NCBI GenBank assembly: GCA_041173745.1
Contig: JBEDID010000001.1
Coordinates: forward strand, 1-57,949
Length of the DNA stretch: 57,949 bases
Direction: 5' to 3'
Source: Candidatus Parcubacteria bacterium
GTDB taxonomy: Bacteria; Patescibacteriota; Minisyncoccia; Phycocordibacterales; UBA918
Shown piece after piece: positions 6,528 through 55,656 of this stretch (positions are counted from its first letter, which is position 1; each line of letters begins with the position of its first letter). A model generated the notes under the pieces. That model had not been told where the DNA came from, made no database searches, and saw only the letters and a list, made by a program, of their open reading frames with translations. The translations under genes and the position numbers were made by a program.

Positions 6528-8288
6528 CTACACCACGTGAGATAAAAAATCATCCTCACTAACTTCAGGAGTAGGGTTGGGGGCTGGCGGTAAACCGGTT
6601 GGTGTTTGAGCGGCAGCGGCTGCGATGTAAGGGAGTTCAATTACACGCTCTAGTTCTTTAAGTGAAGTTAAGCCTTTGATAATTTTTTCGATACCATCTT
6701 CAATCATGGTGGGGATGCCTTGGGGTTTAGCGGCTTCAGCAATGATGTGTTCACGCGGATCACGGATAACTACCTCTTCGACTGCTTCATCCATTACTAC
6801 ACCTTCAAAAATACCGGTTCGTCCTTTGAATCCCGTGCCCGCACATTTGACGCAGCCGGTCGGGCGGTAAATATTAAGCGGGTCAGGAATTGGAAAAGGA
6901 TGAGGGTGACTACCCATAACATAAGTAATAAGTTGTTTTTCTTCGGGTGATGGCTGATAAGCTATTTTACAATCAGTGCACAAGAGGCGAACCAGACGTT
7001 GGCCAATGATGATGTTAATGGAACTGCCCATAATCCGCGGGTCGACTCCCAGATCCATCAAACGCACAAAGCCTGCCACCGCACTATTGGTGTGCAAGGT
7101 ACTGAATACCAAGTGTCCAGTTTGGGCGGCGTGAATGGCGGTCTCAGCCACTTCAGCATCACGAATTTCTCCGACCATAATAATGTCAGGGTCTTGTCGG
7201 AGAATGGCGCGCAAACCAGAGGCAAAAGTGTAGTCGTCACCAGTTTGGGTTTGGACGATACCATCAAGTTTGTATTCCACTGGATTTTCAATCGTGATTA
7301 TTTTTACTCCCTCAGAGTGAGTTTCTTTAAGGAAGGCGTAAAGAGCCGTAGTTTTTCCGGAGCCAGTTGGACCGGTGGTGATAATCAAACCGTTGGGCTT
7401 TTTGAGTTCAAGCTTCATCGCTGCTTCCATATAAGGATTGAGATTTATCTTGTCCATACTGAAACTAGCTGCGGTAGGATCTAAGAGTCGCATTACGATT
7501 GATTCGCCGAGCGCACCAGGAATCACTGAAGAACGAACTTCAATTTGTCGGTCGCCAATATCAAATGTCATACGTCCGTCTTGAGCTTCGGCTTTGGAGT
7601 TGAGAATCATGCCTGAGAGTAATTTCAAGCGCGACATTAAACGACTGAAGATATATTTATCTAGATCAGCAATATCATTCAAAACACCATCGAATCGATA
7701 GCGCAGTCGGATTACGGTTTCTTCCGGTTCGATGTGAATGTCAGAGGCTCTTAAGGCTAGTCCACCAGCAAAGATAAGTTCTAAAGTTTCAGAAATACGC
7801 CGGCTATTGTTGATGGTACTGATTTCGTTAAGGATGACAGCCACATCTTCCTTTTTAGAAATACGCCCAGTTAGTTTGATGATATCAGCAGCACTGATTT
7901 CAAACACTCCTCTTTTTTCGGCAGATGAATCAGTGATGTCTTGGTAGCGTTTCCAGGCATAATTGAGACTGGCGGTTGAGCACATGAAAAGATTGATAGT
8001 GTAGTTGCGCTTTTGTAGTTCTTCCAACAAAGCTTGAAGTTTGGGGCTGTTGGGATTTTTGGTGCCAATTGAGAGGGTGTGGCGGTTGATTTCGTAGCCG
8101 ACCATTTCAGCCGCGCGGGCTTTTTCTTCTGGAATGGCGGTTAAAGCTTCTGGGTTGATACTTAAACCTTGGAGATTAACGTAATCGAATCCTAATTGTG
8201 GTGCGTTCATTTGAATTGAACGTTCTTCTTCACGATTATGTAAATCGCTAATCCTTGCGTTTGAGTATTTATCATCAAAAGTAACCAT
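6528..8288 (-). CDS. pilB: type IV pilus assembly ATPase PilB (GspE family)
   Basis: N-terminal GspE_N-like region, Walker A GPTGSGKTT, Walker B IIMVGEIRD, His box, and a tetracysteine CTDC...CVKC. Confidence 0.9.
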   Translation of the reverse strand: MVTFDDKYSNARISDLHNREEERSIQMNAPQLGFDYVNLQGLSINPEALTAIPEEKARAAEMVGYEINRHTLSIGTKNPNSPKLQALLEELQKRNYTINLFMCSTASLNYAWKRYQDITDSSAEKRGVFEISAADIIKLTGRISKKEDVAVILNEISTINNSRRISETLELIFAGGLALRASDIHIEPEETVIRLRYRFDGVLNDIADLDKYIFSRLMSRLKLLSGMILNSKAEAQDGRMTFDIGDRQIEVRSSVIPGALGESIVMRLLDPTAASFSMDKINLNPYMEAAMKLELKKPNGLIITTGPTGSGKTTALYAFLKETHSEGVKIITIENPVEYKLDGIVQTQTGDDYTFASGLRAILRQDPDIIMVGEIRDAEVAETAIHAAQTGHLVFSTLHTNSAVAGFVRLMDLGVDPRIMGSSINIIIGQRLVRLLCTDCKIAYQPSPEEKQLITYVMGSHPHPFPIPDPLNIYRPTGCVKCAGTGFKGRTGIFEGVVMDEAVEEVVIRDPREHIIAEAAKPQGIPTMIEDGIEKIIKGLTSLKELERVIELPYIAAAAAQTPTGLPPAPNPTPEVSEDDFLSHVV

Positions 8289-8850: not shown

Positions 8851-11250
8851 ATGTCTAAAACAACCACTCCCACTTTAGTTTTACTCGACTCACACGCCAT
8901 CTTGCACCGCGCTTATCACGCCCTGCCGGATTTTTCTTCACCAACCGGCGAACCGACTGGTGCTCTGTATGGAGTAGTAACGATGCTGCTGCGGATTATT
9001 GAAGAGTTTAAGCCGGAGTATATCGCAGCTTGTTTTGATTTACCGGAACCAACTTATCGACATGAGGCGTTTGATGGTTATAAGTCCGGGCGCTCCAAAA
9101 CTGACGATGCTTTGGTGCAACAAATAATTCGCTCGCGGGATATTTTTAAAGTGTTTGGCATCCCGATTTTTGAACGTCCTGGCTTTGAGGCTGACGACCT
9201 CTTGGGCACCATTGCGCATCTCACTGCCGACAATAAAGATTTGCGCGTGGTGATAGCCTCTGGCGATATGGACACGATGCAGTGTGTTGATAAAAAACGC
9301 GTGCAGGTCTTTACTTTAAAAAAGGGTATTAAAGATACAATTACCTACGACGAGCAAGCGGTGAAAGATCGTTATGGTTTTGGGCCGAAATTAGTGCCAG
9401 ATTATAAAGGCTTGCGCGGTGACCCATCCGACAATATTCCGGGTATTGCCGGCATCGGTGAAAAAACGGCCACGACGCTGATTATGACTTTCGGTTCCAT
9501 CGAAAAGATTTATAAAAAATTAGAGAATGACGAACAAGCATTTTTGGATGCGGGCATTAAACCGCGGATTATTAATTTACTGAAAGAAGGCAAAGAAGAA
9601 GCTGAATTTTCAAAAATGTTGGCCACTATTAGGATTGATGCGATTGATACTTTTGATGTTAGTACAACAGAATGGAAAGCTCAGGCTGATACCGATGAGA
9701 TCATTAAACTCTTTAGTGAGCTAGGTTTCCGCACTGTCACTGACCGGGTAAAAAAGTTATTTGATATTACTTTGGTTGATGACGCGGCGATTGCTGAAAG
9801 TATTCCCGAGCATGAACTACAAGAGGCAAGTATTTTACTTTGGTTATTAGAAAGTGAACGCACCAACGCCACCTATATCGACATCATTGAATACGGCCGG
9901 TCATTTCTAGCAGCTAACACTTGGGCCGAAACTGTCAAAGCTTTGCAGCATAAAGTTAAAGCAGCGGGATTGTGGAAGATTTACGAAGAGATTGAATTTC
10001 CACTGATTAAAGTTGTGGCAGCGATGAAGCAACAGGGGATTACACTAGATGTAGATTATCTTAAAACTCTATCGGTGCAGTTTCACCAAGAGTTGGAGAC
10101 TTTGGAGAAAACTATTTACCAACAAGCGGGCGTTGAGTTTAATCTTAATTCACCCAAACAATTAGGTGAAATATTGTTTGACACATTGGGACTCAAGCCT
10201 AAAAATGCTAAAAAAACTGCTGGCGGACAACGCTCTACTAAAGAATCCGAGTTGGAAAAACTGCAAGATGAACATCCAATTATTGGAGAGATTTTGCGCT
10301 ATCGTGAACTACAAAAATTAGTTTCAACTTACGTCGATAATTTACCTGGCCAAGTTGGAACAGACGGAAAATTACATTCTACCTTTTTACAAACCGGCAC
10401 TACCACAGGTCGCATGGCGAGTCGTGATCCAAACGTGCAAAACATTCCCGCTCGCACCAATGAAGGCAAAGCGATTCGTAAAGCCTTTGTGGCTGATGCT
10501 GGCTACACCTTAGTAGCAATTGATTACTCGCAAATCGAACTACGCATTGCTGCGCTCCTTTCAGGTGACGAAACCATGATAGAGATATTTAAAGCTGGTG
10601 GAGACGTGCACGCTGGTGTCGCCTCGCGTGTATTTGGAGTGAAAGAAAACGAAGTAACAGACAATATGCGCCGGCAAGCTAAAGTTATTAACTTCGGTAT
10701 TCTCTACGGCATGGGGGTAAATGCTTTGCGTCAAAATTTGGGTGAAGATACCACTCGAGCCGCCGCCCAAGAATTCCTTAATGCCTACTTTAATACTTTT
10801 ACCAGATTGGCAGAATATTTAGAAGGAATTAAAAGTTTCGCGCGTGAACACGGTTACACCGAAACCGTCTTCGGCCGCCGCCGACATTTTCCTGGTATTA
10901 CTTCTAGTGTGCCGTTTATTCGCGCTCAAGCCGAACGTATGGCGATTAATGCACCAGTTCAAGGTACTTCCGCTGATATTATCCGCTTGGCCATGGTGAA
11001 GATTTTTGATTATATAAAAAGTCATGAATTGGAAGCCGACGCGCGTATGTTGCTTCAAGTGCACGATGAACTTATCTTTGAAATTAAGACTGAAAAGGTT
11101 AAGTCAATCGTACCAACTCTATTAGAAATTATGACGACAGTGTTAGACGAAAAACAATCCAACGGAGTGCCGATTCGAGCTGAAATAAAGCTGGGTCATA
11201 ATTGGGAAGGGTTAAAACCAATAACCTTAGCTGAAGTAAAACAAAAATAA
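8851..11250 (+). CDS. polA: DNA polymerase I (5'-3' exonuclease plus polymerase, shortened central domain)
   Basis: N-terminal FEN-like domain (LLDSHAILHRAYHA, GDPSDNIPG). Pol A motifs DYSQIELR, RRQAKVINFGILYG and QVHDEL. 799 aa. Confidence 0.95.
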   Translation: MSKTTTPTLVLLDSHAILHRAYHALPDFSSPTGEPTGALYGVVTMLLRIIEEFKPEYIAACFDLPEPTYRHEAFDGYKSGRSKTDDALVQQIIRSRDIFKVFGIPIFERPGFEADDLLGTIAHLTADNKDLRVVIASGDMDTMQCVDKKRVQVFTLKKGIKDTITYDEQAVKDRYGFGPKLVPDYKGLRGDPSDNIPGIAGIGEKTATTLIMTFGSIEKIYKKLENDEQAFLDAGIKPRIINLLKEGKEEAEFSKMLATIRIDAIDTFDVSTTEWKAQADTDEIIKLFSELGFRTVTDRVKKLFDITLVDDAAIAESIPEHELQEASILLWLLESERTNATYIDIIEYGRSFLAANTWAETVKALQHKVKAAGLWKIYEEIEFPLIKVVAAMKQQGITLDVDYLKTLSVQFHQELETLEKTIYQQAGVEFNLNSPKQLGEILFDTLGLKPKNAKKTAGGQRSTKESELEKLQDEHPIIGEILRYRELQKLVSTYVDNLPGQVGTDGKLHSTFLQTGTTTGRMASRDPNVQNIPARTNEGKAIRKAFVADAGYTLVAIDYSQIELRIAALLSGDETMIEIFKAGGDVHAGVASRVFGVKENEVTDNMRRQAKVINFGILYGMGVNALRQNLGEDTTRAAAQEFLNAYFNTFTRLAEYLEGIKSFAREHGYTETVFGRRRHFPGITSSVPFIRAQAERMAINAPVQGTSADIIRLAMVKIFDYIKSHELEADARMLLQVHDELIFEIKTEKVKSIVPTLLEIMTTVLDEKQSNGVPIRAEIKLGHNWEGLKPITLAEVKQK

Positions 11251-36151: not shown

Positions 36152-36204
36152 GAGTAAAGTATAGCAAGTAATGGGATGTAAGGAATATTATTTTCATCTT
36201 GTAC

Positions 36205-36545
36205 TACTTCCCACTAACGATGGTGACCTGTCAAAGTTTGTGTACTGGTTTACCATGACTCCCACCTTACGATAGTGTTCAATAAAAAAGACAATCGACT
36301 CAGGACATATATTTCAAGGAAGGTGTAAATCATTTCTTGTGCAGGGAGATGAGCATTTAATAACATTGATACGCTATGTAGGACGTAACCCTTTGAGAGC
36401 AAAACTTATTGAGTGTGCTGTTGAGTGGAAATATTCAAGTCGATTGCACGGCAGTGGTGTGCAAAAGAAAATAATCAGTATCGGAGGTTTAGTCTTGCCT
36501 AAAGATTATCTAAAATTCATCCAGATTCCGCTGACTCCAAAATAG
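36205..36545 (+). pseudogene. IS200-like HUH/Y1 transposase pseudogene (N-terminally truncated, frame-disrupted)
   Basis: VLLPTNDGDLSKFVYWFTMTPTLR* in one frame, then ...GHIFQGRCKSFLVQGDEHLITLIRYVGRNPLRAKL...EWKYSS in another. These parallel LVLHPQNDGDLGVFMHRLTNAHTRR and GPLYQGRYKSFLV...LLKYVERNPVRARL...DWKWGS of the intact copy at 52615. Confidence 0.7.
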
Positions 36546-36696
36546 TTGGAAATAGCTCGTACTTCAATCAACAAAAGTACACCATACGGGGGAGAGTTGT
36601 AGGGAGATAAAATGATAGATCAGTTCAAGCTGCAGAGTGCAGTGAGAGGTAAGGGGAGCCCAAAGAAATGCTCCTGACCCTTTTATTCCCCTCCTA

Positions 36697-37602
36697 ATGA
36701 TTCTTGGATCACAGGCAAAACTGGAGAACGATAACCGAGGTATCAACGTAAAGCGAGGACTGCGTACACGAGCCGAGATGGGACTGTGGGTAGGCATGGC
36801 TCCGCTTGGATATCTCACTCAAGGTTTGATGGATAAAAAGTGTCAGCTGATAGTAGATCCACTTAGAGCACCTACCGTGAAGAAGATATTTGAAAAAGTC
36901 GCTTACGAACACTGGTCAGGGCGTAAGGTATATAACTGGTTAAGATTTGAGCTGAATTTCTATACTAGAGGCAACAAACCTCTCACTCTCGGTGGTGTGT
37001 ACCGTATCCTAGAAAACCCCTTCTACTATGGAGTCTTTGAAAGACCCAGAAAAAGTGGAAACTGGTATCAGGGTAAACATACGCCACTAATTACTCAGGA
37101 GTTATTTGAGAAAGCTAAGGTACAACTAAAACGAGACCAGATTGTTCGAGAAACCAAGGAATTCGCCTTCACCAAGCTATTTACCTGCGGATACTGCGGA
37201 TCAGGTATATCAGCTGAAGAAAAGTGGAAACAACTTAAAGACGGCGGAGCTAATAGATACATCTACTACTCCTGCTCACGAGCTAGAGATCGCAACTGCA
37301 AAAACATGTATATCCGAGAAGAAGATTTGATACTAGAACTACTCAAAATACTTGATAAGGTAAATATAAATGAGCTGGGCATGCGGAAAAAACTTGAGGA
37401 CGAGATTGCTAGATTCAACATATTTCAAAGGTCAGTACTTGGAGCGAAGGAAAAGATAAAAACAGATCCTGATACTGACATTCGCAACTATGCGAAGTAT
37501 ATCTTGAAAGAAGGCACGACGATTGAGAAGCGGGAGCTACTAGCGAATTTGCGATCAAGAATAATGTACAAAGATAAAACACTCACCTTGATTAAAGAAT
37601 GA
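36697..37602 (+). CDS. large serine recombinase lacking the N-terminal catalytic resolvase domain (likely remnant)
   Basis: The recombinase domain (GLWVGMAPLGY, YNWL) and zinc-ribbon (CGYCG...YYSCS) are present. The frame is closed by TAA just upstream, so the Ser catalytic domain is missing. Confidence 0.7.
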   Translation: MILGSQAKLENDNRGINVKRGLRTRAEMGLWVGMAPLGYLTQGLMDKKCQLIVDPLRAPTVKKIFEKVAYEHWSGRKVYNWLRFELNFYTRGNKPLTLGGVYRILENPFYYGVFERPRKSGNWYQGKHTPLITQELFEKAKVQLKRDQIVRETKEFAFTKLFTCGYCGSGISAEEKWKQLKDGGANRYIYYSCSRARDRNCKNMYIREEDLILELLKILDKVNINELGMRKKLEDEIARFNIFQRSVLGAKEKIKTDPDTDIRNYAKYILKEGTTIEKRELLANLRSRIMYKDKTLTLIKE

Positions 37603-47547: not shown

Positions 47548-48072
47548 TTATTCAGTTCGAGTTTTTAGGATGTAGATGTACAACACAATCATAAATCCAA
47601 ACAGAAAAGCTGACAAAAGTGGAAAGGTGACAAAGCCAAATTCAAACATAAATCTTTTGGCGCAATCGCCGCCGGAAGTGGGGCAGGCAATAAACTCATT
47701 GCCGCCCATTTGTAGGTAGTGCTGATACAACGCTACAATTAATCCAGGAATCGAAAGCAATAAACCATACCGAGCGGCTACTTTTTCTTTGTAGAAAATA
47801 GCCATTCCAAGAATAAATACTTGCGGATAAAGAAAGACGCGTTGCGTCCAACATAAACCACACGGTATAAAACCAAAGCCTTCAGAATAAACTAAAGTCA
47901 TGATGCTTGAGCCGAGAGTAAATAAAAACCCAGCCGTCATTCCCCAAACCTTAATGATTTTTTCAAACTCTCTACTGGTGTAAAGGTCTACTAATATTAT
48001 TGAGCTAACCAGCAGAACCGAAATTCCTCCTAGGGCTAAGATAAAGTTTAAAGTCTGCACTGTATCACTCAT
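47548..48072 (-). CDS. disulfide bond formation protein DsbB/BdbC family
   Basis: 4 TM segments, IPCGLCWTQR motif, and a second Cys pair CPTSGGDC. Confidence 0.8.
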   Translation of the reverse strand: MSDTVQTLNFILALGGISVLLVSSIILVDLYTSREFEKIIKVWGMTAGFLFTLGSSIMTLVYSEGFGFIPCGLCWTQRVFLYPQVFILGMAIFYKEKVAARYGLLLSIPGLIVALYQHYLQMGGNEFIACPTSGGDCAKRFMFEFGFVTFPLLSAFLFGFMIVLYIYILKTRTE

Positions 48073-48074
48073 AG

Positions 48075-48488
48075 TTATTGAATTACACAGCCGGTTTTTT
48101 CAGCCAGTTTATCAAATTGTTGGACGCCACTTAATTCGGTACCATCAGTAAATTTCCAAGTGGGGTAGCCGGTAATTTTTTCATCAATACAAACTTGAGT
48201 TTGACCATTACCGTCTTCTAGAGAACATTCTACGTAAGGTAATTTCTTTGAGTTTTCAAATAAGGCTTTTTGTTCCTGACAATGCGGACACCAAAAAGCG
48301 CCGTAAAATACCGCTCCAGCATCAGCTAAACATTGAGCGAATTCATCGGCAGAACTGTTGGAGGCTGTGGCTGTAGAGTTGTCAGCATTAGTAACTGTCT
48401 GAGCAGGAGCCTCAGCTTGGTTGTTAAAAATTAGTAAACCAATAACCGCTACCACCACTACCATCATGTATATATATGTAGTCTTCAT
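48075..48488 (-). CDS. secreted thioredoxin-fold thiol-disulfide oxidoreductase
   Basis: N-terminal TM/signal and a WCPHC active site. Coupled to the dsbB-like gene (2-nt gap). Confidence 0.75.
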   Translation of the reverse strand: MKTTYIYMMVVVVAVIGLLIFNNQAEAPAQTVTNADNSTATASNSSADEFAQCLADAGAVFYGAFWCPHCQEQKALFENSKKLPYVECSLEDGNGQTQVCIDEKITGYPTWKFTDGTELSGVQQFDKLAEKTGCVIQ

Positions 48489-48808
48489 ACCGCTAGCATA
48501 CCATTACACGCTATTCATTTCCAGATAAATAGTCCGTTTGGTTATTATATTGGAAAATTATCTAGAGTATTTTTTATGAGAAGTAGTTGTTTGTTAAATA
48601 AATTGTTATACAATCACTAGTAATAGACACCCGCAAATAAACCTTACTTATTAAATAAAATCTATGGACCTAAATAAATTTGAGGTAAATATTGGTAAAT
48701 AGGGAGGCATCCGATTTAATCTCCATAACCGCCTCCCCATTTACCCTTTGGTACCTAGTCCAACGCCAATACCTCGTATGCTTGTCATCGGGGTAGTTTA
48801 TTAATTGT

Positions 48809-48840
48809 GCCTGTCCCCATTTATGCCTGTCCCCATTTAT
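48809..48840. repeat. tandem 16-mer gcctgtccccatttat x2 (reverse complement contains AATGGGGACAG)
   Basis: Perfect tandem copies at 48809-48824 and 48825-48840. It is the same 11-mer core as the boxes at 52387-52575, but in the opposite orientation. Confidence 0.8.
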
Positions 48841-49031
48841 CGAGACCAAGGAAGAGATTAGGCGGACTCACTCCATATGAGTTCTTTTATCAAGAGACGG
48901 GTGTTGCACTTGGTGGTTGAAGGTAGCACCGATAAACTTGTCATTATCTTATATTTATTGTATGGTTATAATTGGAAGTCACTCAACCGAGTGACTATTT
49001 TGTTCTCCATAAATCAACAAAGGATACGAAA

Positions 49032-51197
49032 ATGAAAAATGATTCCCTCTTTATCATACCCATGACTACCAAGGTTTCTCAAACCAAGACAGTCTTCCAG
49101 CAACACGATCAGGACATCATCATCAATGCACCAGGTTCTCTTATGGGGAAGTTGGTTGACTTGTGTGACGGTAAATCAACAAAGACGCAGATTGTCGACT
49201 CGCTCACTACTGAGTGGGATCAAGGCTGTGTTGTTGAACTGGTTGACGAACTGTTCCGTCTTGGATTGCTTATCGAACCGAAGTATATATGTGAGGGTAT
49301 GTGGCGATACGCAACAAATCCTTCACGTTACGCTCGTGCAGTCAGCGATCAAGAAGCCACAAACTTGGCAAAAAAAGCCTGGGAGAGACACCAGACTTCG
49401 GCTGTATGCAAATACTACCAGAAATCGACATCCAACTTCAACAATCTTCTCGAAGACAGGTGTTCGACCCGCAACTTCTCGAGGTTGCCGGTCGAAGTTC
49501 AAGTTATTGTGGACATGCTCTGGTCTGGATATGGTGAATGTAGAAATACTAAACGCACCGTTCCATCGGCTGGAGCCCTGTATCCAATCGTGCTGTACTT
49601 GGGGCTCATGCGTTCGTCGGGAGAACTTTCTCCGGGTGTATATCGTGTGAGTGTTAGTCAGATGTGGTCGGTCGGGTTCGAGATGGTGTCAGAAGATATT
49701 GCTAAGTTACAAAGATCTTTTATGGACCCGATGATGGCAGAAAAAGCACACGGGGCAGTGGTTATAGGCGGTTCATTACGACGTACCGCTGAGAAGTATG
49801 GCAACCGCAGTATGCTGTACGTTCCTCTGGAAGCTGGACATGTGGCCCAGAATATCCATCTGTCCGCCTACTCCCATAAACTTGTTACGGTAGAAATCGG
49901 CGGCTTTGCCGAAGATGTGCTACACAAAGCTTGTGGAATGCCAGATGAATACATACCGATGACTACCATTCTGTTTGGTCACCCTTCACAGGAGGTCGAA
50001 AATACGACAGGTGTGTCCGAGGTTGACTGGGTCATGCCTACTGCCAGGTCCTATCAAACACCATTCGCTATTGCGCAAGCACGAGTATCGGCGGAGCTGA
50101 ATGAAGACTGGTCGTATGGGCGAGATGCCTCGCCCAGGATGGCAATGATAAAAGCTGTGTCCGAGGCAAAAGAATGGGCGGCGTGTGGTTGTGTCCCGGA
50201 AGGGTTGTTGAGGGCGCGATTGAAAGACGTACCGAATGCAATCGATCCGAGAGCTGTCATTCAGTTCCATGAAAGTCAGTACAAGCTGACGGGCTTTCCT
50301 CTAAAGCCATTTGACGAGGAAACTGCATATGAGTGGGTGGAAGGAAAAGATGAATTAACGGGTGAAAGCAAATATCTGTTGGCTGATCTTGTCTATTTCC
50401 CATATTTTGGAGAAACTCCACCATACCTATTTGCAAATTCGTCGGGTGTCGCAGCACATCCTGATTCACAAAAGGCAGTTGAATCAAGCGTGCTCGAACT
50501 GATTGAGCGTGACGCTTTTATGGTTGCCTACCTGACCAGCTTGAGTTACCCGACAATATCGGCGAGTTCTTTACCTCAGTATCTGCAGGAGCGCATTTCG
50601 ACCCTTAAGCAAGAAGGTTTTGAAGTTACTATCAAAGATCATACTCTTGACCTGGCACCTGTAGTGACCGTCTTGGTTCAAAACGAGGCATTAGCGTATA
50701 CCAATTGTGCTTCATGCTCTCGTTTTGAAATCGAATCGGCCATAGATCATGCTTTGATGGAGGCTGAAGGTTCAGTCTTAGCAAGACTTCAAAATGGTCC
50801 TGCTCCAGCACTGAAACCGTCGGATGTTGATATGCCTTTGCAACATGGAGCGCTCTACGAACAGAAAGGATATTTTCGTAGAGCCGACTTTATGTTTAAG
50901 GGAGAGGTCTGTATGATGAATGAGTTGCCTGCTCGGGTGAGTAGCTGGGGTGGTTTGCTTGATAGGCTACATCAGATGGAGGTTCCTTTGGTAACCACCC
51001 CGTTCTTTCTTTCGGAACAGTATGGTGGTAATGGTGACTTGTACATCGTGCGCTCAATTATTCCAGGACTTGTACCGATGACCTTCGGGTATCGGCAAGA
51101 GCCTGGTGGTATGAAAAGGCTGTACAACGTGGCTCGTCAGAAAGGTAAGCATTTGAGCTACGGAAACATCCGGAAGTTCCCGCATCCTTTCGCATAA
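49032..51197 (+). CDS. fused RRE(PqqD-like)-SagB-type FMN dehydrogenase-YcaO cyclodehydratase
   Basis: AGGA lies 7 nt upstream of ATG 49032. The N-terminus LVDLCDGKSTKTQIVDSL...VVELVDELFRLGLLIE is PqqD/RRE-like. The middle region RCSTRNFS, PSAGALYP and LEAGHVAQN is SagB/nitroreductase-like. The C-terminal half SSGVAAHPD...SVLELIERDAF and the terminal FPHPFA are YcaO-like. Confidence 0.8.
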   Translation: MKNDSLFIIPMTTKVSQTKTVFQQHDQDIIINAPGSLMGKLVDLCDGKSTKTQIVDSLTTEWDQGCVVELVDELFRLGLLIEPKYICEGMWRYATNPSRYARAVSDQEATNLAKKAWERHQTSAVCKYYQKSTSNFNNLLEDRCSTRNFSRLPVEVQVIVDMLWSGYGECRNTKRTVPSAGALYPIVLYLGLMRSSGELSPGVYRVSVSQMWSVGFEMVSEDIAKLQRSFMDPMMAEKAHGAVVIGGSLRRTAEKYGNRSMLYVPLEAGHVAQNIHLSAYSHKLVTVEIGGFAEDVLHKACGMPDEYIPMTTILFGHPSQEVENTTGVSEVDWVMPTARSYQTPFAIAQARVSAELNEDWSYGRDASPRMAMIKAVSEAKEWAACGCVPEGLLRARLKDVPNAIDPRAVIQFHESQYKLTGFPLKPFDEETAYEWVEGKDELTGESKYLLADLVYFPYFGETPPYLFANSSGVAAHPDSQKAVESSVLELIERDAFMVAYLTSLSYPTISASSLPQYLQERISTLKQEGFEVTIKDHTLDLAPVVTVLVQNEALAYTNCASCSRFEIESAIDHALMEAEGSVLARLQNGPAPALKPSDVDMPLQHGALYEQKGYFRRADFMFKGEVCMMNELPARVSSWGGLLDRLHQMEVPLVTTPFFLSEQYGGNGDLYIVRSIIPGLVPMTFGYRQEPGGMKRLYNVARQKGKHLSYGNIRKFPHPFA

Positions 51198-51232
51198 ACT
51201 GCGACTTAGGGCGAGGAGTATAACTCCTCGCC

Positions 51233-51880
51233 CTATTTTTTATCTAAAAAATCAACAGAGTGTAATTTATAAAGATCACTAGCTCTCAATCCACTTGCTT
51301 TTATTTTTTCTTGTACCAATTTGAAGCCTAGTGAATAGCCGGACCAACGTTTAATGGTGTCGCTGCCGAAGAACCATTCGTCATTTACCCAACCTCGTTG
51401 ATTTAAAATATCGTTTGCTTTAGTCCACAGATCATCCAATTCGTTCTCGGTAAAGGCAGTAGTATAAATAGATGGAGGTAGATCTGGTTGTACTTCTATT
51501 TCAAAATTCTGTGTTAAACCTTCTGCAATCAAAGAGTCTAGTAATGTTCCATTCTCCCACGGTATATATTGCTCACGCACTACATGCATATATTCATGAA
51601 TGAGCGTACGAGCAACTTCTGCCTCGAAGTTATTTTTAAGATGAGGATTGCTCAAATCTAAGTAGATATCAATACATCTAGCATCTTTTGTATATTGTCC
51701 TGAAATACCCAATCCAGGAATTGAGTTTTGTGGACTGTGCCGAACGACAACATCTGTTTCTACTGATTCAGTGAGAAAGATCACTTTGTCCGCTGTTGTA
51801 TCAAAGATGTCTTGCATTTGGCCAGTAACTACTTCTAGTTCTTTATTAGTTTTAAGAAAGTGATAGTGAAAAATTTGCAT
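51233..51880 (-). CDS. DUF2268-like predicted zinc metalloprotease (HExxH)
   Basis: LIHEYMHVVRE (HExxH), TLLDSLIAEGLTQNF and RWSGYSLGFKLV match the DUF2268 pattern. Start taken at ATG 51880. Confidence 0.65.
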   Translation of the reverse strand: MQIFHYHFLKTNKELEVVTGQMQDIFDTTADKVIFLTESVETDVVVRHSPQNSIPGLGISGQYTKDARCIDIYLDLSNPHLKNNFEAEVARTLIHEYMHVVREQYIPWENGTLLDSLIAEGLTQNFEIEVQPDLPPSIYTTAFTENELDDLWTKANDILNQRGWVNDEWFFGSDTIKRWSGYSLGFKLVQEKIKASGLRASDLYKLHSVDFLDKK

Positions 51881-51913
51881 AATTATATTGTAGCAAAGTT
51901 TATAGCTGCTGTA

Positions 51914-51947
51914 TAAAAAAACAGGCGCGGCATTGTTGTGCCACACC
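51914..51947 (-). terminator. intrinsic terminator/attenuator after the small peptide gene
   Basis: The minus-strand RNA is GGUGUGGCA-CAACAA-UGCCGCGCC followed by UGUUUUUUUA. It lies between the peptide stop (51970) and the protease start (51880). Confidence 0.6.
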
Positions 51948-51969
51948 CGTCTGGTGGTTGAAATTGTCC

Positions 51970-52110
51970 TTACTTGTTTTCTGGCTTCTTGCCGCCACAT
52001 CTCCCGTTACCGCCACCGCCACTACGGCACTGTGATTGGAAGTTTCCGCGATCGTTGTGTCCCTGCGGAACGGTTTTGGTTGAAAAAGAGAACTTCTTTT
52101 TAGGTTTCAT
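51970..52110 (-). CDS. 46-aa Lys-flanked Gly/Cys-rich peptide, candidate RiPP precursor
   Basis: Hand translation gives MKPKKKFSFSTKTVPQGHNDRGNFQSQCRSGGGGNGRCGGKKPENK. AAGGA lies 9 nt upstream of the ATG, with its own promoter upstream and a terminator downstream. Confidence 0.5.
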   Translation of the reverse strand: MKPKKKFSFSTKTVPQGHNDRGNFQSQCRSGGGGNGRCGGKKPENK

Positions 52111-52197
52111 ATCTGATTTTCCTTTGAAAAGACCTCCAGGCAAAGATACAGTCGGTGCCACATATTGACAAAGACAGGCCCTTACAATCTAAGGTAA

Positions 52198-52225
52198 AAT
52201 ATATACTAAAACAGCTATAAGTCAA
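52198..52225 (-). promoter_or_regulatory. sigma70-like promoter for the peptide gene (TTGACT-N16-TATATT on the minus strand)
   Basis: The reverse complement of 52220-52225 is TTGACT. The reverse complement of 52198-52203 is TATATT. It lies about 85 nt upstream of ATG 52110. Confidence 0.5.
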
Positions 52226-52513
52226 CAGATTCCGCTGAAATCTCAGCAGTAGATGGTAGAGGGACGATTAATATAAAACACCCTCCACTCTAATTATGAC
52301 CACACAGCTAATGTGGCACACAGAGACTCGCAAAGTCGATGACTGGAAGGTACCCCAAATCTAAGACACCTTTTCTAAGTAATGAAGTAATGGGGACAGT
52401 GAACCGTACCCCTTAACATAGACACGAAATAGAAATAGTGATTTCATTTATGTACACAGTAAATGTTTCCGATACTCCACTGGTGACATTTTTTCTCTGT
52501 GCCATTGCTTGAA

Positions 52514-52575
52514 GTAACGGGGACATTGGTAATGGGCGGTAATGACGGTAATGGGGACAGCGGTAATGGGGACAG
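52514..52575. repeat. array of GGTAATG(GGGACAG) boxes (REP-like), plus an isolated copy at 52387-52399
   Basis: gtaacggggacat, ggtaatgggcg, ggtaatgacg, ggtaatggggacag and cggtaatggggacag lie in tandem directly upstream of the Y1 transposase gene. Confidence 0.75.
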
Positions 52576-53324
52576 TCACGATTTATCCCAAAGAAAATAT
52601 GGCATAATACACACATGCCAAGACTTGCTCGAGTAGACATCGGAAACGAAATATATCACGTAATCAATCGAGCAGTCGGTCGTCTCCAGATATTCAATAA
52701 AGACGAAGATTATAAACTGTTTGAAGACATAATGCTCGAAGCAAAGGATCTGTCTGGCATGAGAATTCTTGCCTACACTATCATGCCTAACCATTGGCAC
52801 TTAGTACTTCATCCGCAAAATGATGGAGACTTAGGAGTATTTATGCACCGATTAACAAACGCTCACACAAGGCGAGTGCACGTTAAGACTGAAACAATTG
52901 GACATGGTCCTCTATATCAAGGTCGGTATAAGTCATTTTTGGTTGACTCAGAGAAATACTTTCTTACCTTGCTTAAGTACGTAGAAAGAAATCCTGTCCG
53001 AGCAAGACTCGCTAAAAGATGCGAAGACTGGAAGTGGGGGAGCGCCTATCGCAGGAGTGCTGGAGAAACTTTTCAAAATCAGATTCTAGATGCCTCACCA
53101 GTTTCTTTTACTCTTGACTATGCAGAATGGATTAATGCTCCTGACACAGAAAGCGACCTTAGTTCAATCCGCATCTCTGTTAATAAAGGGGCACCCTATG
53201 GTAGAGAGAATTGGGTTGAAGCTATGACGAAGCTGTATAAGTTGGAGACAACGCAACGTCTGGCAGGAAGACCGAGGAAAATTAATTAGACCATGGGTAT
53301 TTTCTGAAAAATCGTGACTGTCCC
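52569..53324 (+). mobile_element. IS200-like unit: Y1 transposase gene flanked by perfect 16-bp inverted repeats
   Basis: gggacagtcacgattt (52569-52584) and aaatcgtgactgtccc (53309-53324) are exact reverse complements bracketing the ORF. Confidence 0.6.
52615..53289 (+). CDS. HUH/Y1 transposase, IS200-like (REP-associated tyrosine transposase-like)
   Basis: HUH motif in IMPNHWHLVL and catalytic Tyr region GPLYQGRYKSF. 224 aa with a C-terminal extension. Confidence 0.85.
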   Translation: MPRLARVDIGNEIYHVINRAVGRLQIFNKDEDYKLFEDIMLEAKDLSGMRILAYTIMPNHWHLVLHPQNDGDLGVFMHRLTNAHTRRVHVKTETIGHGPLYQGRYKSFLVDSEKYFLTLLKYVERNPVRARLAKRCEDWKWGSAYRRSAGETFQNQILDASPVSFTLDYAEWINAPDTESDLSSIRISVNKGAPYGRENWVEAMTKLYKLETTQRLAGRPRKIN

Positions 53325-53350
53325 TGTTTACTCATTTAGCTTCAAAATTT

Positions 53351-55300
53351 ATGAAAGAGAATTGGGAAATTCCGTTGTTGGATAATCGAGTTGTATGTAT
53401 TGCTAATATCGAAAGCGAATCTCTTGTTGCTCAAATTTCTTCCTTGTTTGCAAGAAAGGGTCACTATTTTCCTCTCTATATGTTTCCAAATGTAAATACG
53501 GTGAGTGCTGAGTATGTAGATCGTGATTCTGACGAATTTATTTCAAATATGATTGGAAATGAGTCAGCCGTTTTCATAAATAACAGCATTGCAAAAATGC
53601 AGGGTGCTGAAACCTATCTTTTTGTTGGTCTTAGTGAATTTCAAAAAAGTTATATGTCTCAGTACATAAAGGAATTCGTTGAGATATCTGATCAGAGTGA
53701 GATCGAAACAAAGCTACATTCTATTGCTAATCTGAAGATAGAGATACTTGCTTGCAAGGAGGATGAGCTACTAAAGGGTCTTTATTTAGCCTGTATGAAT
53801 AATAAGCGCCTTGTGGTTGATAATGAGGCAGAATCATTGACTCTAGAACTTAGAGGTAAACAGGGTGTGGTAGGTGTTGAAAAAAGTAGAGAAGGACACA
53901 CATCATCAATTATTGGTGTGAATTATGCAGTATCACTGGATGCAGATTTAATAATCTTAGATCAGGTTTCTAGGCAGGAATTTGAACAAATTGAACGAAG
54001 ACTACAAAGATGGAAAGATGAGAACAATCATAATCACTTTCGTAAAGTTTGTAACAAAGCTAAAAATCGTCTTTCAGAATACGATTTGTCGCAGTATAAG
54101 TATGGGACATTTTTTACTGAGGGAATACCCTACGGACTCGGTATAGATAATCTAATACCTACAACCCATGTCCACTTACATCTAAGGCCGGATTTATTTA
54201 TAATAAATGGGATTGGAACAGAACGGGGCGGTAGATTTCATTCCGCAGTCGTTTTCTCACCACAATTTTTTACCCTAGAAGAAACAGAATCTGTAATAGA
54301 GTTTCTTCAAGAGAAAGAGTATTACGTAAGGGAGTTGGTGGGTGAAGACGCGACAACACAAAACTTAGATTTTCACGCACAGCATTTTCCGTACGACCTA
54401 CTTCATATTTGTAGTCATGGAGGAGAAATGGAAGGTTATGAGGTAACTCTAAAATTTAAAGATAGAAAAGGTGCACTCCACACTATTGTGTATGATGAGG
54501 CGGTTTCATTCTCGCCTGTGCCTGGAAAGGAATTAATATCAGTGCTTCAAAAAGCTTTTTTCCGGACACTCAATGGTTATAAGTGGATGAGTCCGCAACT
54601 GAAAGTAAAAAACTACCCTCAATATGTCTACCAGGATATGTTTAAAGCAGTAAGTAATGACAATACTCCTAGAAAGAAAAAGGCTGGAACAATTCCGTCT
54701 GCTTATGCAATCACAACTTCAGATGGTTTTAACCAGGGTGCATTTAAAATTTTATCTTCTCACAACAACCCAATTATTTTCAATAACTCCTGTTGGTCAT
54801 GGGGTCAGATTGCAACACACTTTATAGTCTCTGGTGCACGAGGCTACATAGGCACTTTATGGAAAATAGGTAACTTAGAAGCGAATATAGCTGCGAGAAG
54901 GTTTTATGCAATGATTAATGACTACTCAATCATGACTTGCCTACATTCAGCGCAGCAAGAAATTAAAGGTACAGAGTCAGAAAATGTATTCCACTACTGG
55001 GGTTTACATTTTACATCGATAGCACAAAACGGCGTCAGTGAAAAAGAAAGTCGCATTCGTGTCTTTTCAGAATTGTTACGCGCTGTTTTTGCATGGATTG
55101 ATAAAGTGAATACAACGGCTAATCCAACTATTAGAAGTAATTCTATACAGGTTGTACACGAGCTCCATAATGAATTACTTACTCATTTTACAGAGGAAGA
55201 CATGGCGAACCTTGAAAAGAAATTCAATGATCTACCAGTTCCTCAGGCAACACCTGAGCTAGGTGAATCGGATCGTAGTTCTGTCGAAAGAAAACATTAA
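53351..55300 (+). CDS. CHAT (caspase-like) protease domain protein with uncharacterised N-terminal half
   Basis: The C-terminal half has LLHICSHGG (His, codon 54416-54418 region), IIFNNSCWSWG (Cys codon 54791-54793) and GYIGTLWKI...ARRFY, the CHAT His/Cys dyad pattern. Confidence 0.65.
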   Translation: MKENWEIPLLDNRVVCIANIESESLVAQISSLFARKGHYFPLYMFPNVNTVSAEYVDRDSDEFISNMIGNESAVFINNSIAKMQGAETYLFVGLSEFQKSYMSQYIKEFVEISDQSEIETKLHSIANLKIEILACKEDELLKGLYLACMNNKRLVVDNEAESLTLELRGKQGVVGVEKSREGHTSSIIGVNYAVSLDADLIILDQVSRQEFEQIERRLQRWKDENNHNHFRKVCNKAKNRLSEYDLSQYKYGTFFTEGIPYGLGIDNLIPTTHVHLHLRPDLFIINGIGTERGGRFHSAVVFSPQFFTLEETESVIEFLQEKEYYVRELVGEDATTQNLDFHAQHFPYDLLHICSHGGEMEGYEVTLKFKDRKGALHTIVYDEAVSFSPVPGKELISVLQKAFFRTLNGYKWMSPQLKVKNYPQYVYQDMFKAVSNDNTPRKKKAGTIPSAYAITTSDGFNQGAFKILSSHNNPIIFNNSCWSWGQIATHFIVSGARGYIGTLWKIGNLEANIAARRFYAMINDYSIMTCLHSAQQEIKGTESENVFHYWGLHFTSIAQNGVSEKESRIRVFSELLRAVFAWIDKVNTTANPTIRSNSIQVVHELHNELLTHFTEEDMANLEKKFNDLPVPQATPELGESDRSSVERKH

Positions 55301-55334
55301 AGAACAAAGAATTGATGTAGTTTAGTTGAATCGA

Positions 55335-55405: not shown

Positions 55406-55454
55406 CCTCTCAGTAGGTCTCACTAGTTGGTGCCTGCGTAAAGAATCGAACTCC
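55406..55454 (-). repeat. degenerate copy of the tRNA-Arg(UCU) 3' half plus trailer (att-like)
   Basis: cctctcagtaggtctcactagttggtgcctgcgtaaagaatcgaactcc versus cctctcgataggtctcgctacgtggtgctcccagtaggaatcgaaccta (55560-55608). About three quarters of positions are identical. Confidence 0.6.
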
Positions 55455-55581: not shown

Positions 55582-55656
55582 TGGTGCTCCCAGTAGGAAT
55601 CGAACCTACATCAACGGCTTAGAAGTCCGCAGTTCTATCCATTAAACTATGGGAGC
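55582..55656 (-). tRNA. tRNA-Arg (anticodon UCU), CCA encoded
   Basis: Acceptor GCTCCCA/TGGGAGC, anticodon loop CTTCTAA, T arm GTAGG-TTCGATT-CCTAC. Confidence 0.85.

Follow-up and report, generated by a model that had tools for sequence, protein, structure and literature searches.

The 57,949-nucleotide contig JBEDID010000001.1 of Candidatus Parcubacteria bacterium (GenBank assembly GCA_041173745.1), which we analysed in its entirety and call the window, carries a cassette of genes for a predicted ribosomally synthesised and post-translationally modified peptide (RiPP) and, beside it, a gene for an HUH/Y1 transposase. Short boxes of closely related sequence flank the cassette in opposite orientations, and we were interested in what these boxes are and whether they have anything to do with the movement of the cassette. 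A TIRtron is a gene like those of the REP-associated tyrosine transposases (RAYTs; REP, repetitive extragenic palindrome) framed by long inverted repeats, and its enzyme is called a TIRYT (Di Nocera, De Gregorio & Rocco 2013, PMC3733652). We consider the following explanation, taken as a whole, highly probable: the Y1 gene and its two terminal inverted repeats (TIRs) form a TIRtron in a genome of the candidate phyla radiation (CPR); the boxes correspond to the outer arm and CAG centre of its approximately 47-nt imperfect TIR; the cassette is an independent accessory unit, conserved from promoter to promoter; and nothing indicates that the TIRtron moves the cassette, the inverted bracket being incidental.

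The boxes form three sets. To the left of the cassette lie two perfect tandem copies of gcctgtccccatttat (48809-48824 and 48825-48840); to the right stands gtaatggggacag at 52387-52399, followed by an array at 52513-52575 made of AGTAACGGGGACAT, TGGTAATGGG, CGGTAATGA and two copies of CGGTAATGGGGACAG, which runs directly into TCACGATTT. These are the positions given in a sequence-only reading of the window, which had the array entering the left repeat of the transposase, and all five exact copies of the common 11-mer AATGGGGACAG were recovered. They lie on the minus strand at 48811 and 48827 and on the plus strand at 52389, 52550 and 52565, so that the left boxes are, as claimed, inverted relative to the right ones. 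With up to one mismatch allowed the window holds six copies against 0.66 expected, a number reached in none of 100 shuffles. No exact copy occurs elsewhere in the assembly (905,747 bases in 78 contigs, 40.7% G+C, the window being contig C1). The assembly is fragmented exactly at repeats of the TIR type, so this census is a lower bound. Confinement of the exact 11-mer to the locus was thus upheld by the genome-wide count, while a restriction of the repeat family to the vicinity of Y1 genes was not: looser copies without a gene are found away from Y1 genes, at C20:88-175, C28:5262-5300, C4:17.1-17.4 kb and C74:3.6 kb. The likeness between the two sides also extends beyond the 11-mer, with 48800-48821 and 52565-52586 being 86% complementary over 22 nt.

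The anatomy of the repeats around the Y1 gene explains what the boxes are part of (Table 1). The 16-mer GGGACAGTCACGATTT is present only at 52569-52584 (plus strand) and 53309-53324 (minus strand), on either side of the gene, and forms the perfect core of an inverted repeat of 40 nt with 75% identity (52569-52608 and 53285-53324). Many TIRtron repeats share the sequence GGGGWSAS, and their copies are single, dimeric or grouped (PMC3733652; the consensus also appears in PMC6006769). The sequence GGGGACAG, which fits this consensus, is present in the left TIR and in each of the five boxes; the right TIR has AGGGACAG as its core, with a single deviating base. The assignment of the boxes to the repeat system of the neighbouring RAYT-type gene in the earlier reading is borne out. 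The inner module of the left TIR, ATGGCATAAT, is likely to serve as the -10 element of the TIRYT gene. Between the isolated box and the left TIR, the array is a series of four partial left-TIR copies of 14, 10, 9 and 15 nt, all with the same outer end, GGTAAT, and unequal inward reach, an arrangement that we call stutter; the isolated copy at 52377-52410 is 89% identical to 52510-52528 over 19 nt.

Table 1. Features of the window between the DsbB-like gene and tRNA-Arg(tct).
Feature	Position	Strand	Remarks
DsbB-like gene	47548-48072	-	
Thioredoxin-like gene	48075-48488	-	
TIR dimer of a second TIR subtype (REPIN/MITE-like hairpin)	48684-48745		arms GGTAAATAGGGAGGC and GCCTCCCCATTTACC, partial copy GGTAAATATT in front
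Gene-less TIR, right-end orientation	48800-48824	-	minus strand reads ATAAATGGGGACAGGCACAATTAAT; outer face directed rightward, at the RiPP cassette
Perfect 16-nt tandem partial copy (stutter unit) of the outer TIR part	48825-48840	-	
Predicted YcaO promoter	48938-48966	+	TTGTCA-17-TATGGT; homology with relatives starts here
SagB-type dehydrogenase (nitroreductase)-YcaO cyclodehydratase fusion, 721 aa	49032-51197	+	Pfam PF00881 and PF02624
Bidirectional terminator hairpin, 13-bp stem	51207-51235		between the convergent units
DUF2268 HExxH zinc protease	51233-51883	-	Pfam PF10026, E 2e-23
Candidate precursor peptide, 46 aa, Gly/Cys-rich	51970-52110	-	open reading frame inside the block conserved in relatives
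Predicted peptide-protease promoter	52198-52225	-	TTGACT-16-TATATT; homology with most relatives stops here
Isolated, decayed left-end-type TIR copy	52377-52410	+	AAGTAATGGGGACAGTGAACCGTACCCC, 8-nt partial copy AAGTAATG in front
Stutter array	52510-52561	+	four partial left-TIR copies
Left TIR of the TIRtron	52562-52608	+	outer module GGTAATGGGGACAGTCACGATTT, inner module ATGGCATAAT
Y1 gene (TIRYT), 224 aa	52615-53289	+	
Right TIR of the TIRtron	53285-53331	-	minus strand reads GTAAACAGGGACAGTCACGATTTTTCAG...
CHAT-domain protein, 649 aa	53351-55300	+	Pfam PF12770
Partial duplicate of tRNA-Arg 3'-end DNA	55415-55434	+	counterpart of the 22-bp repeat in relative L054
tRNA-Arg(tct)	55582-55656	-	3' end towards the cassette

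The left box pair has a different affinity. Its core, GGGGACAGGCACA, recurs unchanged in the TIR that belongs to the closest TIRYT homologue (genome G009, 56% identical), and the box matches at 18 of 19 positions the end of a 140-bp miniature inverted-repeat transposable element (MITE) in the related locus L054, while the TIRtron in the window carries GGGGACAGTCACG at the corresponding place. Because its core matches the G009 TIR and not that of the adjacent TIRtron, the left box may be the relic of another TIRtron variant. Close by, the dimer at 48684-48745 differs from the TIR of a paralog on contig C14 by 2 mismatches in 20.

The boxes had been expected to be short structured repeats, and here the folding results disagree: boxes and TIRs of the window type, as single-stranded DNA, have minimum free energies of 0 to -1.6 kcal/mol and z-scores above 0, which amounts to no stable structure. 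The dimer at 48684-48745 does fold (-11 to -13.2 kcal/mol, z -3.3), and so do the TIR of the C39-type paralog (z -5.0) and a Pirellulaceae TIR (z -3.4). Hairpin potential varies within this TIR family, as Di Nocera et al. also remarked (PMC3733652).

The enzyme itself supports the assignment of the unit as a TIRtron. It matches Pfam Y1_Tnp with 54 bits and NCBIfam REP_Tyr_transpos (NF047646) with 70.6 bits, the latter under the equivalog cut-off of 80. Its HUH motif is PNHWH (H60-W-H62) and its tyrosine motif is Y122-VERNP, with the class 2 signature Y---NP; H60, H62, Y122 and N126 are invariant across nine homologues, in which the HUH histidines, YQGRYKSF, Y122-VERNP and a C-terminal tail ending in a GRPK motif are conserved. 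The best match among structures in the Protein Data Bank by sequence (phmmer) is 4ER8, E. coli TnpA-REP, which is also the top Foldseek match of the AlphaFold model (pLDDT 77.6; E 8.5e-10, TM 0.73 normalised to the target), transposases of the IS200/IS605 family forming a second tier. Residues 143-207 of the model make up a helical C-terminal region of lower confidence, for which Pfam at E <= 10 gave nothing credible, including no helix-turn-helix of the kind seen in TnpA-Y1 subclass 2.1 (Bac_DnaA_C, HTH_23, HTH_28). At one genome per species, at least 564 relatives of the protein were found, in Paceibacteria, Saccharibacteria, Planctomycetota, Acidobacteriota and other groups. Of the 47 homologues with both flanks available, from many phyla, 42 are framed by an inverted repeat of the same type of at least 14 nt, mostly lying 36-60 nt before the ATG. 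The catalytic motifs, the 4ER8 match, the 40-nt inverted repeat, the fit to GGGGWSAS and the repeats flanking the homologues together are the reason why we call this unit a TIRtron.

Comparison with described systems agrees with this assignment and also brings out what is particular to the window. Like published TIRtrons, the unit has a RAYT-like HUH/Y1 gene of approximately 220-240 aa, long inverted repeats instead of hairpin REPs with GTAG (PMC3733652; about equal to subclass 2.1, PMC6006769), the GGGGWSAS core, TIR copies as singles, dimers and groups, and several diverged paralogs, each with its own TIR. Most TIRYTs have been equated with TnpA-Y1 subclass 2.1 (Quentin et al. 2018, PMC6006769); however, the window type has NH[WF]H and YVERNP where that subclass has NHVH or NH[YF]H with YIELNP or Y[IV]HLNP, and its tail, ending in the GRPK motif, has no C-terminal helix-turn-helix detected by Pfam. 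It also differs in its host, an ultrasmall CPR genome (Paceibacteria, Nomurabacteria-like) with approximately eight paralogs in 0.9 Mb, and in its outer-end stutter arrays, which are not described in PMC3733652 or PMC6006769, where only 'grouped' TIRs are mentioned. E. coli TnpA-REP (4ER8; Messing et al. 2012, PMC3479197) stands for the REPtrons, which the unit resembles in the sequence and fold of its enzyme, in a gene flanked by inverted copies of its own target repeat, and in a protein and repeat that appear to co-evolve; it departs from them in its sub-threshold NCBIfam score, in a repeat without a stable hairpin or GT[AG]G foot (only the C14-type paralog has GTAG), and in a handful of repeat copies, five exact boxes at one locus, instead of tens to hundreds. 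The IS200/IS605 elements (IS608, ISDra2) share the HUH/Y1 catalytic core, but their subterminal hairpins differ between the ends whereas the ends in the window are inverted repeats of each other, their tyrosine motif is Y---Q and not Y---NP (YVERNP), and their copies are multiple and near-identical, unlike the paralogs of this genome at 38-54% identity. Dimers such as that at 48684-48745, which folds as an inverted pair, recall REPINs (paired, inverted REPs) and MITEs, and metagenome contigs frequently contain TIR dimers of the GGGGACAG type; the left box pair, in contrast, is a single end with a partial copy and not a dimer. Finally, inverted end copies on both sides of a gene cassette are reminiscent of a composite transposon, but here the ends face outward, the transposase lies outside the bracket, and cassette and ends do not travel together in relatives.

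The same organization is repeated through the genome. Approximately eight diverged TIRYT paralogs (38-54% identical) are present, several at contig ends, and each has its own TIR variant, for example GGGTCAGTCACGGTTT, GGGGTCAGCCACCATTAAT, AGGGTCAGGTACGGTTT and GGGGAGGCGTCCGATTT. An inner ATGG(C/T)ATAAT module stands just before the ATG and was seen upstream of the paralogs on C62, C39 and C58. Nearly every paralog end carries either tandem duplications of the whole end or arrays of partial copies with a common outer terminus and unequal inward reach, and outer-end stutter likewise marks the gene-less copies on C4, C28 and C74 and the surroundings of homologues from related genomes (L009, L011, L012). 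A GTAG/GTAA 'foot' was considered as a general cleavage tag and dropped, GTAG being present in one paralog only (C14). Contig ends overlap through TIR arrays (C20:1-200, C62:1-60, C39:900-1000): the beginning of C20, in reverse complement, recurs in front of the C39 TIRYT, and the right TIR of C62 has a match at C20:175-195. Several breaks in the assembly are thus due to the end repeats of TIRtrons. One of the paralogs, in the window at 36186-36674, is dead, a pseudogene 38% identical and with three TAG stops, which abuts a large serine recombinase (36667-37575) lacking its first 143 or so residues. In relatives of the RiPP cassette a serine recombinase likewise stands where the window has the intact TIRtron, and this could be coincidence or target preference.

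Metagenome contigs scanned with the exact pattern ATGGGGACAGNCACNATT contained TIRtrons of approximately 750 bp, gene-less plus-then-minus dimers with cores approximately 45-310 nt apart, and clusters. The sole TIR pair with an extra gene inside (L065) was rejected as a cargo-bearing TIRtron, since an IS4-like insertion in its left TIR accounts for the additional 1.2 kb. Two other metagenome contigs, L066 (130-1200 and 10360-11070) and L072 (57-1121), hold at least 11 copies of the TIR core ATGGGGACAGACACGAT spaced approximately 50-235 nt apart, mostly near 100 nt. L066 is G+C-rich and has inverted TIR arrays at both contig ends, adjoining the start of a TIRYT gene. Since L066 carries ATGGGGACAGACACGAT, nearly identical TIR cores occur in a CPR genome and in a G+C-rich organism.

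Turning to the cassette, its components are those of an azole-type RiPP of the thiazole/oxazole-modified microcin or linear azole-containing peptide kind (TOMM/LAP-like): a YcaO protein, a SagB-type dehydrogenase, a small Cys/Gly-rich peptide and a protease are all present, and the cassette would accordingly be predicted to perform such chemistry, although TIGR03604 and TIGR03605 match the YcaO fusion below their own cut-offs. The YcaO gene and the peptide-protease unit are convergent and share the hairpin at 51207-51235. Homologues of the fusion number 499 at E <= 1e-20, and we retrieved the eight closest loci (73-84% identical; G035:C60, L054, L055, L057, L058, L060, L061 and L062). The same three genes are found in all eight, and the DUF2268 protease lies beside the YcaO gene in all relatives examined.

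The sequence-only reading had proposed that the Y1 enzyme mobilises this cassette, of approximately 3.5 kb, through the inverted boxes near 48.8 and 52.4-52.6 kb, with the cassette as its present or recent cargo. Much of the locus invites this idea. The enzyme's own repeat flanks the cassette in inverted copies, and the exact 11-mer has no copy in the assembly outside this locus; the cassette changes neighbourhood between genomes; the conserved block ends within 90-190 nt of the boxes; and the perfect tandem units suggest recent activity. The relatives nevertheless speak against it. The cassette DNA is homologous to the eight loci, at 73-80% identity, from 48934-48975 up to 52032-52298 (six of the eight reach 52206-52298). 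The block begins 94-135 nt after the left boxes and stops no less than 89 nt before the isolated box. The edges of the block therefore coincide with the two promoters and not, as had been expected, with the boxes: the shared block stops 89-190 nt inside them and gives way to unrelated flanks. By the standards which the sequence-only reading set for itself, this boundary result counts fully against it and the scatter of gene-less copies does so in part. Flanking genes are unlike between the loci, only L061 and L062 sharing immediate neighbours. We observed no TIRYT within 7 kb of the cassette in any of the eight loci by tblastn, no TIR-like box near it in six of them, and boxes on both sides in none.

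The orientation of the repeats is also contrary to mobilisation of what lies between them. TIRtron repeats always carry the GGGG core on their outer side. In the window the copy on the left has right-end orientation and those on the right have left-end orientation; outer TIR faces and stutter units are thus directed at the cassette, and from this outward-facing geometry it follows that the cassette lies between two elements and not inside one. Furthermore, the left box is nearer to the TIR of another TIRYT (G009) than to that of the adjacent one, and the TIR pairs in metagenome contigs enclose either nothing or a TIRYT gene only. We consequently regard cargo status of the cassette as exceedingly improbable.

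Some observations weigh against our explanation of an independent cassette with incidental boxes. The geometric argument follows the logic of cut-and-paste transposition and may not hold for an HUH enzyme acting on single strands. The two tandem 16-mers and the two 15-mers are perfect, from which it follows that some process has recently been active on both sides of the cassette. In L054, TIR copies are present upstream (left only) of the cassette, among several TIR elements scattered over that contig, which leaves room for a loose association of TIRs and cassettes; in the left spacer only the TIR itself aligns with L054. Finally, no empty site was found for the interval between the DsbB/thioredoxin genes and tRNA-Arg when DsbB and LD-carboxypeptidase proteins were searched in 60 genomes of the same genus, a deep genus in which DsbB homologues are 37-48% and LD-carboxypeptidases 64-68% identical and the two are not co-located.

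The position of the boxes also suggests a function in gene regulation, in which they would be cis-acting sites through which a DNA-binding protein, possibly the TIRYT, co-regulates both RiPP units. The box sets upstream of the two convergent promoters read CTGTCCCCATT towards the downstream gene in equal orientation, approximately 100 and 160 nt upstream of the predicted -35 boxes, and the conserved tail of the TIRYT with its terminal GRPK motif could be seen in the same light. However, six of the eight relatives are without boxes and yet keep promoters and genes, the motif and its stutter occur at every TIRYT paralog whatever the neighbouring genes, and there is no operator-like dyad, so that we give a regulatory role hardly any credence.

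A further possibility is that the cassette, the TIRtron and the CHAT gene form a single integrative island linked to tRNA-Arg and moved by a serine recombinase, with the boxes as passengers. Part of the evidence comes from the syntenic relative L054, in which tRNA-Arg(tct), tRNA-Val(tac) and an acylphosphatase gene lie to the right of the cassette, as in the window, so that in both the cassette is on the 3' side of tRNA-Arg(tct). Where the window has a box, the TIRtron and the CHAT gene (52299-55334), L054 has a pseudogene of a large serine recombinase. In L054 a segment of 4.6 kb with the RiPP cassette, the recombinase pseudogene and a DUF45-like fragment lies between two directly repeated copies of 22 bp from the tRNA-Arg(tct) 3' end, AGGTCTCGCTAGTTGGTGCCCC (6547-6568 and 11120-11141), and looks like a decayed integrative island. 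In L058 an intact large serine recombinase gene directly follows the cassette, and in L055 a tRNA-Glu does. The window has a partial tRNA repeat at 55415-55434, which is possibly an old attachment-site scar. On the other hand, this nearby partial copy is the only one in the window, with no copy of the tRNA-Arg 3' repeat on the left-hand side; no recombinase gene is present in 48.5-55.6 kb; and neither tRNA nor recombinase is nearby in four of the eight relatives. We hold a single island of this composition to be unlikely, and as regards the boxes it is compatible with our own explanation. Because of the L054 repeat and pseudogene, the L058 recombinase, the L055 tRNA-Glu and the partial repeat in the window, a tRNA-targeting serine-recombinase island is a better, if unproven, vehicle for the cassette than the TIRtron.

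In another of the related loci, G035:C60 (L029 1-110 and 3640-3760), the cassette stands between direct repeats, 100 bp or more in length, that consist of the 3' part of a gene for a 176-aa protein with an HEMLH motif. This gene is full-length upstream and a fragment downstream at the contig end, which suggests a duplication or an insertion event of another kind.

On our explanation, the two spacers flanking the cassette were colonised separately by TIR elements, so that the inverted bracket is incidental. The right array is a pile of partial left-TIR copies, all anchored at the outer end, and the isolated box an older, decayed left-TIR copy; the left pair is a gene-less right-end TIR with one partial copy, in a small cluster of TIR debris together with the dimer at 48684-48745. 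By homology to TnpA-REP and IS608, Tyr122 would be the residue with which the TIRYT nicks and rejoins DNA at the outer boundary of the TIR, and the partial copies would be left when such events are aborted or repeated.

A more active part for the enzyme can be imagined, in which the TIRYT, working in trans, remodels the surroundings of accessory cassettes at tRNA-linked hot spots. Recent nick-and-rejoin events would then have left the perfect partial copies to either side of the RiPP cassette as their footprints, the TIRtron would have replaced the serine recombinase of the relatives, a second, dead TIRYT lying against a truncated recombinase at 36.2-37.6 kb, and one-ended, rolling-circle-like events from an outward-facing TIR would occasionally take the cassette along. 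As a whole, this reading appears very unlikely to us.

These results remove, as unsupported, a tempting link between a RiPP cluster and a Y1 transposase. The cassette is to be treated as a free-standing unit from promoter to promoter, whose transfer among Paceibacteria relies on something other than the TIRtron, possibly on serine-recombinase islands that target tRNA genes. TIRtrons, for their part, are abundant in this CPR genome of 0.9 Mb, with approximately eight diverged paralogs, a TIR for each of them and partial copies anchored at the outer end. To our knowledge, TIRYTs are a large RAYT group without published biochemistry, and with the TIR footprints, defined substrates and candidate cleavage positions are at hand for testing a TIRYT in vitro for the first time.

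To the right of the Y1 gene, the CHAT protein is not part of the TIRtron, and a search of 60 related genomes gave no homologue of it; its gene and the TIRtron make up the genome-specific segment 52299-55334. An Rfam scan of 47-55 kb at E <= 1 gave a single match of chance level, over the terminator. In the left spacer, 15 nt at 48895-48909 are 93% complementary to 51938-51952, an arm of the terminator hairpin behind the peptide gene, which is probably due to chance. The 5' leader of the YcaO gene contains a hairpin at 48977-48996, reading AGTCACTCAACCGAGTGACT then ATTTTGTTCT, which is conserved in G035 and L054 apart from its loop and is possibly a leader or attenuator of the gene for the RiPP maturase.

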